In this document: in pieces, positions 30,844 to 38,690 of the stretch | Layout of the letters: each line of letters begins with the position of its first letter | Position numbering within the stretch: the first letter of the stretch is position 1 | Assembly (NCBI GenBank): GCA_946409545.1 | Contig: CAMJWT010000005.1 | Span: 9,708 to 73,707, forward strand | DNA length: 64,000 nucleotides | Direction: 5' to 3' | Origin: an uncultured Clostridia bacterium | GTDB lineage: Bacteria; Bacillota_I; Bacilli_A; RF39; UBA660 | Made by a program: the position numbers and the translations under genes | Notes under the pieces: generated by a model | Told to the model about the DNA's origin: nothing | The model's input: the letters and a program-made list of their open reading frames with translations, nothing else | The model's database searches: none

Positions 30844-30873
30844 AAATAGATATTATTTGCATAATATCTATTT
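30844..30873 (-). terminator. Intrinsic terminator after rtcB copy 1
   Basis: 13-bp hairpin AAATAGATATTAT-ttgc-ATAATATCTATTT overlapping the rtcB stop codon at 30868. Confidence 0.55.
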
Positions 30874-32100
30874 CATTTTACTAATCCCTTTATCTTTTTC
30901 AAAAGGCATTTCTGCTGCCTTAAAATTATATACAGGTTTAATTATTCTTTCAACTTCTACAGTTGGTATTATATAACTTCTTATTTCTTCTAAACTTTTA
31001 TAGGCAAATGGAGATTCGTCAATAGTATCTTCATTTACTGATGAAGTATATATACCTCTCATCGATTCTTGATAATCTAGAAGATTGATGCGTTCTCGTG
31101 CTTGTGTTCGGGACATTATTCTTCCAGCCCCATGTGGAGCGGAGTAATTCCAATCAGGATTTCCTTTACCAACACCAATTATACAACCATCTCTCATATT
31201 AATAGGAATAATTACTCTTTCACCTTCACGAGCTGATATTGCTCCTTTTCTAACAATGTTATCAGAAAATGAAATATAATTGTGAACTGATTCAAAATAA
31301 TTATCTAATTTCCACCCCATATGCTCAGCAATTCTTTTTGCAATCGTAAATCTATTTATAATTGCAAATTCCTGACATATCATCATATCATGTAAATAAG
31401 ATTCTCGATACTTACCATCTAAATAAGATAAATTTTGTGGAATGTCATTTAAATATTCTCTATATTCTGAAATCAATTGTTCTAATTGTGACTGAATCTC
31501 GTTTCCTTTTCCTAATTCTTTACATCTTTTGATTATTTCAACTCTTTTTATACGATACTCATTATATTTTTTTACACGAATTTGATTTGCAATGCCTTGA
31601 TAATAATTGGCAACTTGTGTACCTAAATTTCTAGAGCCTGTATGAATTATCAAATATTTTTCACCATCTTCGCTCTCATCTATTTCGATAAAATGATTAC
31701 CACCACCTAAAGATCCTAAAGATTTTTCAAGCCAATCAATATTTTTCAACTGACTATAGCAAAATAATCTTTTTAAATCAAAATCTTTAATTTTAGAAGA
31801 ATTTACTTCTAAACCACTAGGTATCTGAGTATTAATGAAATCGTCAAGTTTTTTATAATCAATATCAATTTTTCCTAAAGAAACACAAAGCATTCCACAA
31901 CCAATATCAACACCAACTATACTTGGAATAACTTTATCTCCTAAATCTCCAGTAAAACCAATTACGCTTCCTTTTCCAGCATGAACATCTGGCATAATTC
32001 TAATTTTACTATTTTTAAAAGCTTCTAATTTAGCTAATGTATCAATTTGTTTTCTTGCATCATCTTCAATATTATCAGTAAAAATTTTTATATTACTCAT
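30868..32100 (-). CDS. rtcB: RNA 3'-phosphate/5'-OH ligase RtcB, copy 1
   Basis: 410 aa with MPDVHAGKG, DIGCGM, GGGNHFIEID, HTGSRNLG, HNY and SAPHGAGR, which are the RtcB metal and GMP-histidine motifs. Confidence 0.9.
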   Translation of the reverse strand: MSNIKIFTDNIEDDARKQIDTLAKLEAFKNSKIRIMPDVHAGKGSVIGFTGDLGDKVIPSIVGVDIGCGMLCVSLGKIDIDYKKLDDFINTQIPSGLEVNSSKIKDFDLKRLFCYSQLKNIDWLEKSLGSLGGGNHFIEIDESEDGEKYLIIHTGSRNLGTQVANYYQGIANQIRVKKYNEYRIKRVEIIKRCKELGKGNEIQSQLEQLISEYREYLNDIPQNLSYLDGKYRESYLHDMMICQEFAIINRFTIAKRIAEHMGWKLDNYFESVHNYISFSDNIVRKGAISAREGERVIIPINMRDGCIIGVGKGNPDWNYSAPHGAGRIMSRTQARERINLLDYQESMRGIYTSSVNEDTIDESPFAYKSLEEIRSYIIPTVEVERIIKPVYNFKAAEMPFEKDKGISKMK

Positions 32101-32112
32101 TGCATCACCAAA

Positions 32113-32487
32113 TTACATTCTAGTTTTACCGCCATAATAATCAATTAAGTGTTGCATTTCTGCTTTAACTTTATCATTCGCATATCCAAAGAAATATTCA
32201 TGATCAATATCTTCATATGCTAAATTTTCAATGATAATACCTACTCCAAAATTAACAACAGTCTCATCTTCTGATGATAACATCTTACTTAATAATGATG
32301 CCATTCTTTTTGTAACATCATCGTTTTTATTCTTTATTTCAGGAATTGCATATGGCAAAAATGTTAATATAGTAAATTCATAGGCATCACCATATACAGG
32401 TTGATTAACTACCAGTTCCTTATATTCGTTCTCCAAATTAGGAAATTCATTTATGATTAATTTAAGTATTTCAGCATCATTTTGCAT
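32113..32487 (-). CDS. Small acidic cytoplasmic protein in the immunity-gene position downstream of the toxin
   Basis: 124 aa, trimmed to MQNDAEIL because AAAGGAGA lies 6 nt upstream. It starts 47 nt after the toxin stop and ends 12 nt before rtcB copy 1. It has no TM or signal peptide. I did not recognise a family. Confidence 0.5.
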   Translation of the reverse strand: MQNDAEILKLIINEFPNLENEYKELVVNQPVYGDAYEFTILTFLPYAIPEIKNKNDDVTKRMASLLSKMLSSEDETVVNFGVGIIIENLAYEDIDHEYFFGYANDKVKAEMQHLIDYYGGKTRM

Positions 32488-32534
32488 TTTTATGTCTCCT
32501 TTCATTGAGTTTATGCATTATTTTATATTCAATA

Positions 32535-37309: not shown

Positions 37310-37352
37310 ATAATCACCTACTTTACACTTCATTCTATACTTATCTAATCGT

Positions 37353-37360
37353 ATTATACA
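37353..37360 (-). promoter_or_regulatory. Extended -10 element (TGTATAAT) for the toxin cassette operon
   Basis: The minus strand reads tttttTGTATAATacg about 45 nt upstream of the ATG at 37309, just downstream of the rtcB copy 2 terminator. Confidence 0.4.
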
Positions 37361-37432
37361 AAAAAATAATATTCATTTAAAGACAACAGATTACTTTTAA
37401 CATTATTTAACATTTAATTTTACATAAAAAAA

Positions 37433-37453
37433 AAGGAATCATATTGATTCCTT
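37433..37453 (-). terminator. Intrinsic terminator after rtcB copy 2
   Basis: Hairpin AAGGAATCA-tat-TGATTCCTT overlapping the stop at 37452. A plus-strand A-run gives a U-tract on the minus strand. Confidence 0.6.
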
Positions 37454-38690
37454 ATTTTGTTTTTGCAGAAACTTCTTCTTTATCATCAAATAATTGAACA
37501 CCTGAAGCTTTAAAATTATATACAGGTTTTATAACACGTGTTACTTCAACCGTTGGTGTTATATGATATAAGATTTCTTCTAGTGATTTATAAACAAATG
37601 GTGCTTCATCAACTGTTTCTTCAGTAACAGATGTTGTATATATACCACTCATAGCTTCTCGATATTCTTCCATGTTAACGCGTTCTCTAGCTTCTTTTCT
37701 TGACATAATTCTTCCAGCTCCATGAGGTGCTGAATAATTCCAATCAGGATTTCCTTTTCCTACACCAATAATACAACCATCACGCATATTAATTGGAATA
37801 ATTACTCTTTCTCCTTCGCGAGCTGAAATGGATCCTTTTCTTACAATATTATCATCAAAAGAAATATAATTATGGACAGATTCAAAGTAATCATCTAATT
37901 TCCATCCCATATGTTCTGTAATACGTTTAGCAATTGTGTATCGATTTAATACTGCAAATTCCTGACATATTTTCATATCATGTAAATATGCTTCACGATA
38001 TTTTCCTTCTAAATAAGCAAATTCAGATGGAACTCTTGGTTCAAAATTTTCATATTCTTTAGCAAGATCAGTAAGAGCTTTTTGAATCTCTTGTTCACGA
38101 CCTTCTTCTTTATATTGTTTTATCAATTGTTCTCTTCTTTCGCTAAATTCAAGGATACCATGATTACATATTTGATCAGCAAGATTTTGATAATATGCTG
38201 CAACTTGCGTTCCTAAGTTTCTAGATCCTGTATGAATTACTAAATATTTTTCTCCATCTTCAGCTTCATCAATTTCAATGAAGTGATTTCCTCCACCTAA
38301 AGATCCAATTGCATTCTCAAGTCTTCCTGTATCTTTTAATCTACTGTAACAATATAATCTTGTTAAATCAAAATCTACTATTTTTTGATCATTAACAGCA
38401 AGTCCATTAGGAATTGAACTACTAATAAAATCATCTAATTTCTTATAATCAATATCAACTTTTCCTAATGATACACAAAGCATACCACAGCCAATATCAC
38501 CACCAACGATATTAGGAATAACTTTATCTCCTAAATCACCAGTAAAGCCAATAACACAACTTTTACCACTATGAACATCGGGCATTATTCTTACTTTACT
38601 ATCACGAAAAGCATCTTGATCTAGCAATTCATCAATTTGCCTTCTCGCTTCATCTTCTATATTATCTGTAAATATTTTTAAATCACGCAT
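37452..38690 (-). CDS. rtcB: RNA 3'-phosphate/5'-OH ligase RtcB, copy 2
   Basis: 412 aa from the ATG at 38690; the tracked ORF begins one codon earlier at TTG, and a GGAG RBS is present. It has the same motifs as copy 1 (MPDVHSGKS, GGGNHFIEID, HTGSRNLG, SAPHGAGR) and is collinear with copy 1 along its full length. Confidence 0.9.
   Translation of the reverse strand: MRDLKIFTDNIEDEARRQIDELLDQDAFRDSKVRIMPDVHSGKSCVIGFTGDLGDKVIPNIVGGDIGCGMLCVSLGKVDIDYKKLDDFISSSIPNGLAVNDQKIVDFDLTRLYCYSRLKDTGRLENAIGSLGGGNHFIEIDEAEDGEKYLVIHTGSRNLGTQVAAYYQNLADQICNHGILEFSERREQLIKQYKEEGREQEIQKALTDLAKEYENFEPRVPSEFAYLEGKYREAYLHDMKICQEFAVLNRYTIAKRITEHMGWKLDDYFESVHNYISFDDNIVRKGSISAREGERVIIPINMRDGCIIGVGKGNPDWNYSAPHGAGRIMSRKEARERVNMEEYREAMSGIYTTSVTEETVDEAPFVYKSLEEILYHITPTVEVTRVIKPVYNFKASGVQLFDDKEEVSAKTK

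Follow-up and report, generated by a model that had tools for sequence, protein, structure and literature searches.

The locus described here lies in a 64-kb stretch of DNA (hereafter the window) from an uncultured Clostridia bacterium (assembly GCA_946409545.1, contig CAMJWT010000005.1), a gut member of the Bacillota with a very low G+C content. Two genes for the RNA ligase RtcB, designated rtcB-1 and rtcB-2, flank a 5.3-kb cassette composed of three small genes, a gene for a large toxin, and an immunity-like gene, and every gene of the region is carried on the minus strand. The locus is chromosomal and is set among housekeeping genes; elsewhere the window holds further housekeeping genes and genes for Big_2 surface proteins. 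No phage genes were found near either rtcB copy, and no Rfam match was obtained across positions 30500-39300, including the leader of rtcB-2. The G+C content at third codon positions (GC3) is uniform, at 0.08-0.22 in both rtcB genes, in the cassette, and on either flank, and therefore there is no sign of recent transfer. A foreign composition of the cassette was considered and rejected because its GC3 equals that of the flanks.

The rtcB pair

The rtcB-1 gene (30868-32100) encodes a protein of 410 amino acids and rtcB-2 (37452-38690) encodes one of 412, both on the minus strand, and both products match PF01139 (E = 1.9e-54 and 1.2e-51; 185.9 and 176.7 bits with a cut-off of 27). The start codon of rtcB-2 is the ATG at 38690, which follows a GGAG sequence, and the TTG at 38693 chosen by the open reading frame (ORF) finder adds one extra codon. 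The start of rtcB-1 is preceded by a GGTGA ribosome-binding site. An earlier note on this DNA had described two full-length rtcB copies on the same strand that retain every hallmark motif and share, by eye, about three quarters of their residues. This description holds, as both ORFs are confirmed and BLASTP aligns the two proteins without gaps at 287 of 404 residues (71%). Both keep the MPDVH.GK, GCGM, GGGNHF, HTGSRN, and PHGAGR motifs, and residues D38, H40, C68, N135, H136, H153, H273, and H323, which serve metal binding or guanylylation, are invariant between them. Their motifs align with those of Pyrococcus RtcB, and RtcB chains in PDB are matched at E = 1e-11. Both copies are predicted to be catalytically competent 3′-phosphate/5′-OH RNA ligases, which would join 2′,3′-cyclic-phosphate or 3′-phosphate ends to 5′-OH ends in a GTP/Mn-dependent reaction. 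The TIGR03073 model, which describes PrfH-associated RtcB proteins, scores the two copies at 93.3 and 89.4 bits, below its cut-off of 271.8, and no release-factor-like gene adjoins either one.

At the DNA level, the two genes are 73.4% identical overall and 77%, 83%, and 60% identical at the first, second, and third codon positions, respectively. The segments 31141-31260 and 37731-37850, which had been noted earlier to align without gaps at roughly four of five positions, proved to be 87.5% identical. The longest exact run common to both genes is 23 nucleotides, and there is no convincing extension of the similarity into the flanks. Nonsynonymous divergence (dN) is 0.22 and synonymous divergence (dS) is 1.02, which gives a dN/dS ratio of ~0.2; judged by such codon comparisons, purifying selection is shown for both copies.

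Relatives of these genes were collected by scanning one genome per GTDB species together with metagenome contigs. This yielded 160 rtcB loci (80 from each source) whose products share 51-72% identity with those of the window, and 159 of them were analyzed. A neighbor-joining tree that includes 66 relatives groups the two copies of the window as sisters in 191 of 200 bootstraps. With RtcB-2, the best relatives share 72% of residues, and with RtcB-1 only 67%. Deviations at sites conserved in the outgroups are equally frequent in the two copies (14 versus 13), and therefore neither appears to be decaying. Taken together, the sister placement, the identities to relatives, and the uniform GC3 mark the pair, on sequence comparison, as an old duplication within this lineage whose divergence has been mildly asymmetric. 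A shift in the net charge of RtcB-1 was also considered as a sign of new function but is uninformative, because the relatives range from -17 to +13.

The presence of 1.2-kb direct repeats around a 5.3-kb unit invites the suggestion that the rtcB genes act as homology arms, either for the single-crossover integration of a circular element or for excision or exchange of the cassette that would leave a hybrid rtcB behind. Polymorphic toxin loci exchange modules via recombination, and the protein identity of the two copies is 90-98% over residues 261-340, which is above that of either copy to the outgroups in this segment. However, because the genes are only 73% identical, share no exact run longer than 23 nucleotides, and have a dS of ~1, they are evidently poor recombination substrates and have long coexisted. 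These values are far under the range for efficient RecA-dependent recombination, no homogenization or deletion has taken place, and the earlier note's view of the repeats as a substrate for homologous recombination is weakened accordingly. Neither the unit nor its immediate surroundings contain an integrase or transposase gene. Gene conversion between the two genes was rejected, since the differences in rtcB-1 between strains match rtcB-2 about as often as expected from shared ancestry, with no tract converted toward rtcB-2. A Campbell-type chimera was rejected as well, since windowed identity to the outgroups reveals no switch between the 5′ and 3′ parts. Exact-protein look-ups of the flanking genes, examined for empty-site or hybrid alleles, gave only contigs consistent with the intact arrangement: the window, contig L001 (99.0% identical to it), and two fragments (L166 and L167) that come from a different sample all fit it, and GC3 is fully ameliorated. 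Thus, the locus has neither the recombinase, nor the near-identical repeats, nor the empty or hybrid alleles of a mobile element bounded by direct repeats, and we judge it very improbable that the rtcB genes serve as a scaffold for recombination.

The toxin operon

The toxin gene (32535-36329, minus strand) encodes a protein of 1264 amino acids that has no signal peptide. Five homologues were found among 5.8 billion proteins, and their alignment reveals 32-50% identity from residue 1 to residue ~1030, followed by unrelated C-termini of 230 to 1100 residues. At the level of this alignment, the conserved N-terminal region and the swapped C-termini show the signature of a polymorphic toxin, in agreement with the earlier proposal of a polymorphic-toxin-like cassette with an immunity-like gene. 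The delivery region consists, in order, of a beta-rich portion of ~235 residues, a helical LXG-like stretch (residues ~240-470), and a hydrophobic stretch rich in Gly, Ala, and Ser (residues ~700-900). The whole toxin has no match in Pfam, NCBIfam, PADLOC, or PDB. Specifically, the LXG domain PF04740 was not detected, as neither the toxin nor its pieces gave a Pfam or NCBIfam hit at E values up to 10, and a profile of the toxin family retrieved no LXG chain from PDB. An L-D-G / F-S-G position in the helical stretch of the alignment resembles LXG by visual inspection only. An AlphaFold model of residues 236-480 (5 sequences) is helical, with a predicted local distance difference test score (pLDDT) of 42.7, too poor for a fold search. 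Searches of plasmid and phage collections with tblastn gave no match to the toxin.

The three small genes upstream of the toxin gene, all on the minus strand, are conserved and collinear in two homologous loci (L003 and L004), and the earlier description of three small helical proteins is sustained. The first (36974-37309, of which 37309 is the likelier start) encodes a WXG100-like protein of 111 amino acids with a central W-x-G motif (EWEG). This motif (W48-x-G50) is invariant in the alignment of homologues and is placed by hhalign in register with that of EsxA/ESAT-6, and the protein matches TIGR03930 at a sub-threshold E value of 0.015. The second gene (36685-37011) encodes 108 amino acids, or possibly 98 if translation starts at M11, and its product is WXG100-like and lacks the WxG motif. 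It aligns with the WXG100 profile in hhalign (P = 6.5e-4 over 72 columns), and its own profile matches EsxB in PDB along the full length at E = 0.13, below threshold. Its orthologues in L003 and L004 give weak hits to PF06013 and match TIGR03930 over almost the full length at E = 0.017. The third gene (36342-36683) encodes a helical protein of 113 amino acids with 35-39% identity to its L003 and L004 counterparts. The EsxB match apart, other PDB profile matches of the toxin family and its helpers were dismissed as coiled-coil noise. Based on these similarities, all of which fall below curated thresholds, the helpers are probably WXG100-associated proteins and the toxin is probably secreted by a type VII secretion system (T7SS). 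Core T7SS genes (the EssC/YukB ATPase and its partners) are absent among the scanned proteins of the window.

The immunity-like gene (32113-32487, minus strand) lies 47 nucleotides downstream of the toxin gene and encodes an acidic protein (isoelectric point [pI] 4.5) of 124 amino acids that belongs to DUF7674 (PF24722, E = 4e-8). A strong AGGAG sequence precedes its ATG at 32487, and the gene call in L001 is likewise 124 amino acids long. Every homologue of the toxin has a small gene downstream, and the DUF7674 protein is presumably the cognate immunity factor. No mention of DUF7674 was found in the literature. The gene that follows the closest homologue of the toxin (P0002, 52% identity) is situated at L002:4169-4651, and its product resembles the family of immunity factors for SPN, a streptococcal NADase (PF16718, E = 6.6e-5, below cut-off). 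Because of this neighbor, P0002 probably carries an NADase-type tip, and the toxin family would therefore not be specific for RNA.

The variable module of the toxin (32535-33227, minus strand) comprises residues ~1035-1264, of which the last 125 are basic (pI 9.3). The earlier note had raised the prospect of an RNase fold at this end of the protein. Searches of sequence families and of PDB returned no RNase, as the module has no match in Pfam (E values up to 10), NCBIfam, PADLOC, or PDB by sequence or profile, and an AlphaFold model built from 3 sequences is all-helical and unreliable (pLDDT 53.7), too poor for a fold search. When 1.84 billion representative proteins were scanned exhaustively with HMMER, one genuine relative emerged (P0008, E = 3e-4), which shares with the module an LYRG..GDGGxADAVR..TG..H..K..R..W motif and has a similar C-terminal helix. 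One further relative, a 76-residue fragment (P0010) with Tyr in place of the candidate catalytic His, came from a profile search. The contig that encodes P0008 (L165:1-5512) contains an array of orphan toxin tips, each positioned after a copy of a repeated junction peptide (SSIDDLKKLKGKLSISSFMDEV) and ahead of a small gene, which is the layout of a classic toxin-tip exchange array. It carries no rtcB, and the gene downstream of P0008 is unrelated to DUF7674.

Three other candidates for relatives of the module were set aside. P0007 and P0009 are repeat-protein noise. P0006 (312 amino acids, from an ENA contig) was the lone match of a word-indexed search of 5.8 billion proteins and is a chimeric fragment rather than a relative. 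Its lysine-rich N-terminus resembles a membrane anchor, the following ~100 residues are almost the same as toxin residues ~1010-1110, and the remainder is out of frame. Misassembly of the metagenome or a frameshift in a fragment is its probable origin.

The likely start of the operon is a promoter-like site at 37353-37381 on the minus strand (TTTAAA-17-TATAAT; 10 of 12 consensus positions). It lies ~50 nucleotides downstream of an intrinsic terminator (37433-37453, minus strand) that has a 9-bp stem and a U9 run, was detected in a terminator scan, overlaps the stop codon of rtcB-2, and folds at -10.1 kcal/mol (z-score -3.5). The site is a consensus match only, and the region contains 41 such sites in total when 55.6 are expected, so they are not in excess. 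An extended -10 promoter had been claimed earlier at 37353-37360; the promoter-like site stands, and the canonical TGnTATAAT spacing does not, since no nucleotide separates the TG from the -10 hexamer (TGTATAAT). The likely end of the operon is an A/U-rich hairpin with a U6 run (30839-30872, minus strand) directly after the stop codon of rtcB-1. The hairpin itself (30845-30872) has 12 A/U-rich pairs followed by UUUUUU and folds at -10.1 kcal/mol (z-score -4.33; none of 200 shuffled sequences folds as well), and it was missed by a terminator scan that demands G+C pairs. Terminator hairpins are thus present after both rtcB copies, as had been stated. Between them, our scan found no terminator-like hairpin that abuts a T-run, and the ATG of rtcB-1 lies 12 nucleotides past the stop codon of the immunity-like gene. 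Because rtcB-1 follows so closely and the next hairpin occurs only after it, rtcB-1 is probably the sixth and last gene of the toxin operon. The cassette is consequently not the self-contained unit that was described at first, and the physical link between rtcB-1 and the toxin is closer than had been appreciated.

The mgsA gene, after the 30839-30872 hairpin, is preceded by a TGnTATAAT element and a strong ribosome-binding site. It probably starts at 30814 and not at 30862, in agreement with gene calls in related contigs. Upstream of rtcB-2 is a region of ~300 nucleotides (38694-38996, minus strand) that contains a terminator-like hairpin after the metallophosphoesterase gene (-9.0 kcal/mol, z-score -3.6), a -10-like element at 38959-38966 (TGTATAAT), and a leader. 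The ~300-nucleotide leader holds a 54-codon ORF (38711-38875) and a shorter one. The 54-codon ORF has no protein-family match and is conserved in the sister strain only, and the leader may either serve in regulation or be what remains of a gene. From this layout, the region would be divided into three transcription units, which are rtcB-2 alone, the three small genes through the toxin, the immunity-like gene, and rtcB-1, and finally mgsA with the genes downstream of it.

The different 5′ regions of the two ligase genes, with a leader of 300 nucleotides for rtcB-2 and a gap of 12 nucleotides for rtcB-1, might indicate that the paralogues have divided their labor. They would act on different RNA substrates or be regulated differently, with one copy constitutive or controlled by its leader, the other riding on whichever operon lies upstream, and the toxin operon itself irrelevant. 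Intact motifs and purifying selection in both copies are consistent with such a division, and Myxococcus RtcB1-3, as cited in PMC9223846, are paralogues with distinct activities. However, a difference in substrates has no direct support, and the tight junction with the immunity-like gene would go unexplained. This proposal overlaps with the explanation that we favor below, of which it is a stronger version, and we regard it as quite unlikely.

Recurrence and interpretation of the arrangement

Pairing of the ligase with the toxin was looked for in other genomes, and no such association was met beyond this species. Among the 159 related rtcB loci, not one has a second rtcB within 10 kb, and not one has a homologue of the toxin, the helpers, the DUF7674 protein, MgsA, or the metallophosphoesterase. 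In 40 of these loci (among L023-L142), genes for phage terminase, portal, YopX, gp3, or DUF1492 proteins lie within 5 kb. In addition, more than 500 viral-contig stretches from IMG/VR (L168-L247) encode RtcB relatives with 55-63% identity. Judging from these neighborhoods, the RtcB clade of the window copies is often carried by gut phages or prophages. The phage-borne rtcB typically resides just upstream of packaging genes. WYL regulators lie beside rtcB in 11 of the 159 loci, and DUF2828/DUF7788 proteins do so in nine, the nearest relatives among them. In these nearest relatives (L007:8277-9740, L008, L011, and L017), rtcB adjoins genes for a DUF2828 + DUF7788 protein of ~480 residues and a conserved protein of 122 residues. 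This setting looks like a distinct RNA-repair neighborhood and is absent from the window.

The homologous toxin cassettes point in the same direction, as none of the four (L002, L003, L004, and GCA_016648615.1) has a visible rtcB. The GCA_016648615.1 cassette lies directly upstream of the same string of genes that is seen in the window (mgsA, an IMS polymerase gene, a small ORF, and genes for an HI0933-like protein, an FAD-dependent protein, a hydrolase, and a C11 peptidase). Three unrelated small genes, with no rtcB among them, are found between the cassette and mgsA. The order rtcB-toxin-rtcB is confined to this one species, where it is represented by the window and L001, and by L166 and L167, which are consistent with it. 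We also found no paper that links RtcB with LXG or type VII toxins. Since the pairing does not recur in either the rtcB loci or the cassettes, a species-specific accident of gene order is favored.

We therefore lean toward the view, which we hold to be somewhat probable, that an old rtcB duplication flanks a rare WXG100-associated toxin operon that has captured rtcB-1, and that the arrangement is not a conserved system. We infer that the ligase and the toxin have no functional link. The operon would run from its promoter through three WXG100-like helpers, the toxin, the DUF7674 protein, and rtcB-1 to the terminator. The helpers would guide the toxin, which has no signal peptide, to a secretion route of the type VII-like kind, the killing activity would reside in the swappable C-terminal ~230 residues of the toxin, and the acidic DUF7674 protein would neutralize the toxin in the producer. 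The rtcB-2 gene would stand alone, and rtcB-1 would have come to be transcribed as the last gene of the toxin operon. Such an order could have arisen by accident through the duplication of rtcB together with the acquisition or persistence of a cassette at a site where a related genome has such a cassette as well.

Several observations weigh against this explanation. Three of the four comparison contigs are short, and that of GCA_016648615.1 begins inside the cassette, such that an rtcB farther upstream is possible. The other cassettes also have different toxic modules, and their lack of rtcB is therefore no test of a link confined to the module of the window. The tight junction between the immunity-like gene and rtcB-1, with a common terminator, is the layout that selection for co-expression would yield. 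The basic toxin tip (pI 9.3) and the acidic immunity protein (pI 4.5) recall many nuclease/immunity pairs, a combination that fits a nucleic-acid target without being diagnostic of one. Furthermore, RtcB2-PrfH is known to protect cells from the secreted ribotoxin colicin E3 (PMC9223846, PMC9304027).

The evolutionary rate of rtcB-1 also counts among these points. Its branch in the tree is longer than that of rtcB-2, and it varies more between strains than any other gene of the locus. Comparison of the window with L001 and L167 reveals 25-37 substitutions in rtcB-1, with 8-12 altered amino acids, compared with 0-1 amino-acid changes in rtcB-2 and 4 in the 1264-residue toxin. Between strains, rtcB-1 has a dN of 0.010-0.015 and a dS of 0.07-0.11 (dN/dS of ~0.15, still purifying), and the dN of the toxin gene and rtcB-2 is ~0.001-0.002. 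The long branch and the strain variability are compatible with adaptation to a role in conflict. The dS of mgsA is also raised in one strain comparison, and an import by recombination that spans rtcB-1 and mgsA is possible.

These same observations would be accommodated if the toxin module were a new metal-independent RNase and the co-transcribed rtcB-1 re-ligated RNA cut by leaky self toxin or by toxin variants of kin cells that escape the DUF7674 protein. Such protection would be broad and non-stoichiometric, and rtcB-2 would keep the ancestral function in housekeeping repair. The placement of rtcB-1 in one operon with the toxin and immunity genes, the intact active sites of both ligases, the faster evolution of rtcB-1 since the duplication and between strains, and the charges of the tip and the immunity protein all argue for this proposal. 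There is a precedent in the rescue by RtcB of cells exposed to a secreted rRNase (PMC9223846, PMC9304027, PMC13166195), and the carriage of the clade by phages fits a conflict-related repair function, as has been discussed for phage RNA ligases (PMC7824862). However, the identification of the module as an RNase is unsupported: it has no family or PDB match, its all-helical model is of low confidence, and the candidate His is Tyr in P0010. The sole contig with a relative of the module lacks rtcB and has an unrelated downstream gene, the closest homologue of the toxin is probably NADase-tipped, no pairing was found in the 159 rtcB loci or the four homologous cassettes, and the arrangement is known from one species. 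Therefore, we consider repair of this kind unlikely. More doubtful still is the strict form of the idea, in which rtcB-1 is a dedicated repair-type immunity factor and the final ~125-230 residues of the toxin form an RNase whose fold, probably all-helical, has not been seen before.

If RtcB-1 did protect against the toxin of its own operon, then its effect would extend beyond that of the stoichiometric DUF7674 protein to cover both the producer and kin that carry escaped toxin variants. The locus would hold the first RNA ligase inside a type VII-like toxin operon, derived by neofunctionalization of a phage-type RtcB duplicate. Repair-based immunity would then extend to Gram-positive contact-dependent toxins by means of an in-operon ligase, and the module would point to a new RNase fold. 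Without such a link, the locus would still be of modest value for its giant polymorphic toxin, whose WXG100-associated family is very rare and has an unusual extension at the N-terminus, and whose toxic module in the window matches no known family. It also offers a clean and old RtcB duplication with asymmetric divergence, in an RtcB clade that is largely carried by gut phages. The arrangement itself is an anecdote from one species, and its general importance is limited.

Neighboring genes and known systems

The genes upstream of rtcB-2 (39011-40836) encode a calcineurin-like metallophosphoesterase of 234 amino acids, an 83-residue ORF product, and a protein of 283 amino acids in which a P-loop kinase-like domain is joined to an inorganic pyrophosphatase domain. 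Kinase, phosphoesterase, and pyrophosphate-removing activities are those that RNA end-healing and RtcB guanylylation would use. These genes are unlinked to rtcB in all of the relatives, and a terminator separates them from rtcB-2.

Farther away, three consecutive genes (6060-15542; 825, 1195, and 1073 amino acids) each encode about four Big_2 Ig-like domains and have a G+C content of 0.28-0.35, relative to ~0.20-0.25 around them. Their products are probably surface adhesins. Four genes at 15939-21643 (427, 538, 587, and 371 amino acids) mostly belong to no family, except that one product has a trypsin-like peptidase domain and one has an N-terminal zinc ribbon. This run adjoins a gene for a zinc-ribbon clostripain-like peptidase (21706-23991), and the GCA_016648615.1 contig ends with the C11 peptidase and zinc-ribbon genes, arranged there as in the window. 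A single tRNA-Gln(CTG) gene (58149-58222) is on the plus strand, whereas nearly all genes of the window are on the minus strand.

Among known systems, the toxin operon most invites comparison with the LXG cassettes of type VIIb secretion systems, such as those for TelA, TelB, and TelC of Streptococcus intermedius with their Lap helper proteins. Another example is YxiB-YxiC-YxiD-YxxD of Bacillus subtilis (PMC12700104). Like these cassettes, the operon is chromosomal and situated among housekeeping genes, has small, putatively WXG100-like helical genes immediately upstream of a big toxin without a signal peptide, and encodes a conserved N-terminal region with a swappable C-terminal toxic module and a putative immunity protein immediately downstream. 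Unlike them, its toxin has no detected PF04740 domain, and the helical stretch follows a beta-rich extension of ~235 residues. The delivery region of ~1030 residues includes a hydrophobic segment rich in Gly, Ala, and Ser, and the family has only 5 members. Moreover, there are three helpers, none of which matches DUF3130 or DUF3958, no T7SS core genes were found among the scanned proteins of the 64-kb window, and an rtcB gene probably closes the operon.

The closest parallel for the ligase is the RtcB2-PrfH system of E. coli ATCC25922, in which an RtcB paralogue re-ligates RNA cut by a secreted ribotoxin (PMC9223846, PMC9304027, PMC13166195). Protection from a ribotoxin by an RtcB paralogue has been shown for RtcB2-PrfH and is only proposed for the window, where there is no PrfH partner and the TIGR03073 scores are far below the cut-off. 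Also unlike the arrangement in the window, RtcB2-PrfH targets a foreign toxin and lies outside any toxin operon. In catalytic family and motifs, the two copies of the window agree with the RtcB proteins of the canonical Rtc operon (RtcR-RtcA-RtcB) and those partnered with Ro/TROVE-like or WYL proteins, and their nearest relatives have DUF2828/DUF7788 proteins or WYL regulators as neighbors. In contrast to these settings, no RtcA, RtcR, archease, DUF2828, or WYL gene lies beside the window copies, whose neighbors are instead the toxin operon, the metallophosphoesterase gene, and mgsA.

Phage RNA ligases have been interpreted as counter-measures to RNA-cutting defenses, such as host anticodon nucleases (PMC7824862). 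The window copies resemble phage-encoded RtcB proteins in belonging to a clade that is abundant among gut phages and prophages, but they are chromosomal, have a host-like codon composition, and have no phage genes nearby. Finally, the ADP-ribosylhydrolase Tri1, which acts against the type VI secretion system toxin Tre1, exemplifies immunity by enzymatic reversal. If rtcB-1 were to counter the toxin of its own operon, the likeness would be one of concept, in that an enzyme encoded with a toxin undoes the damage caused by that toxin, with a different chemistry and a different secretion system.

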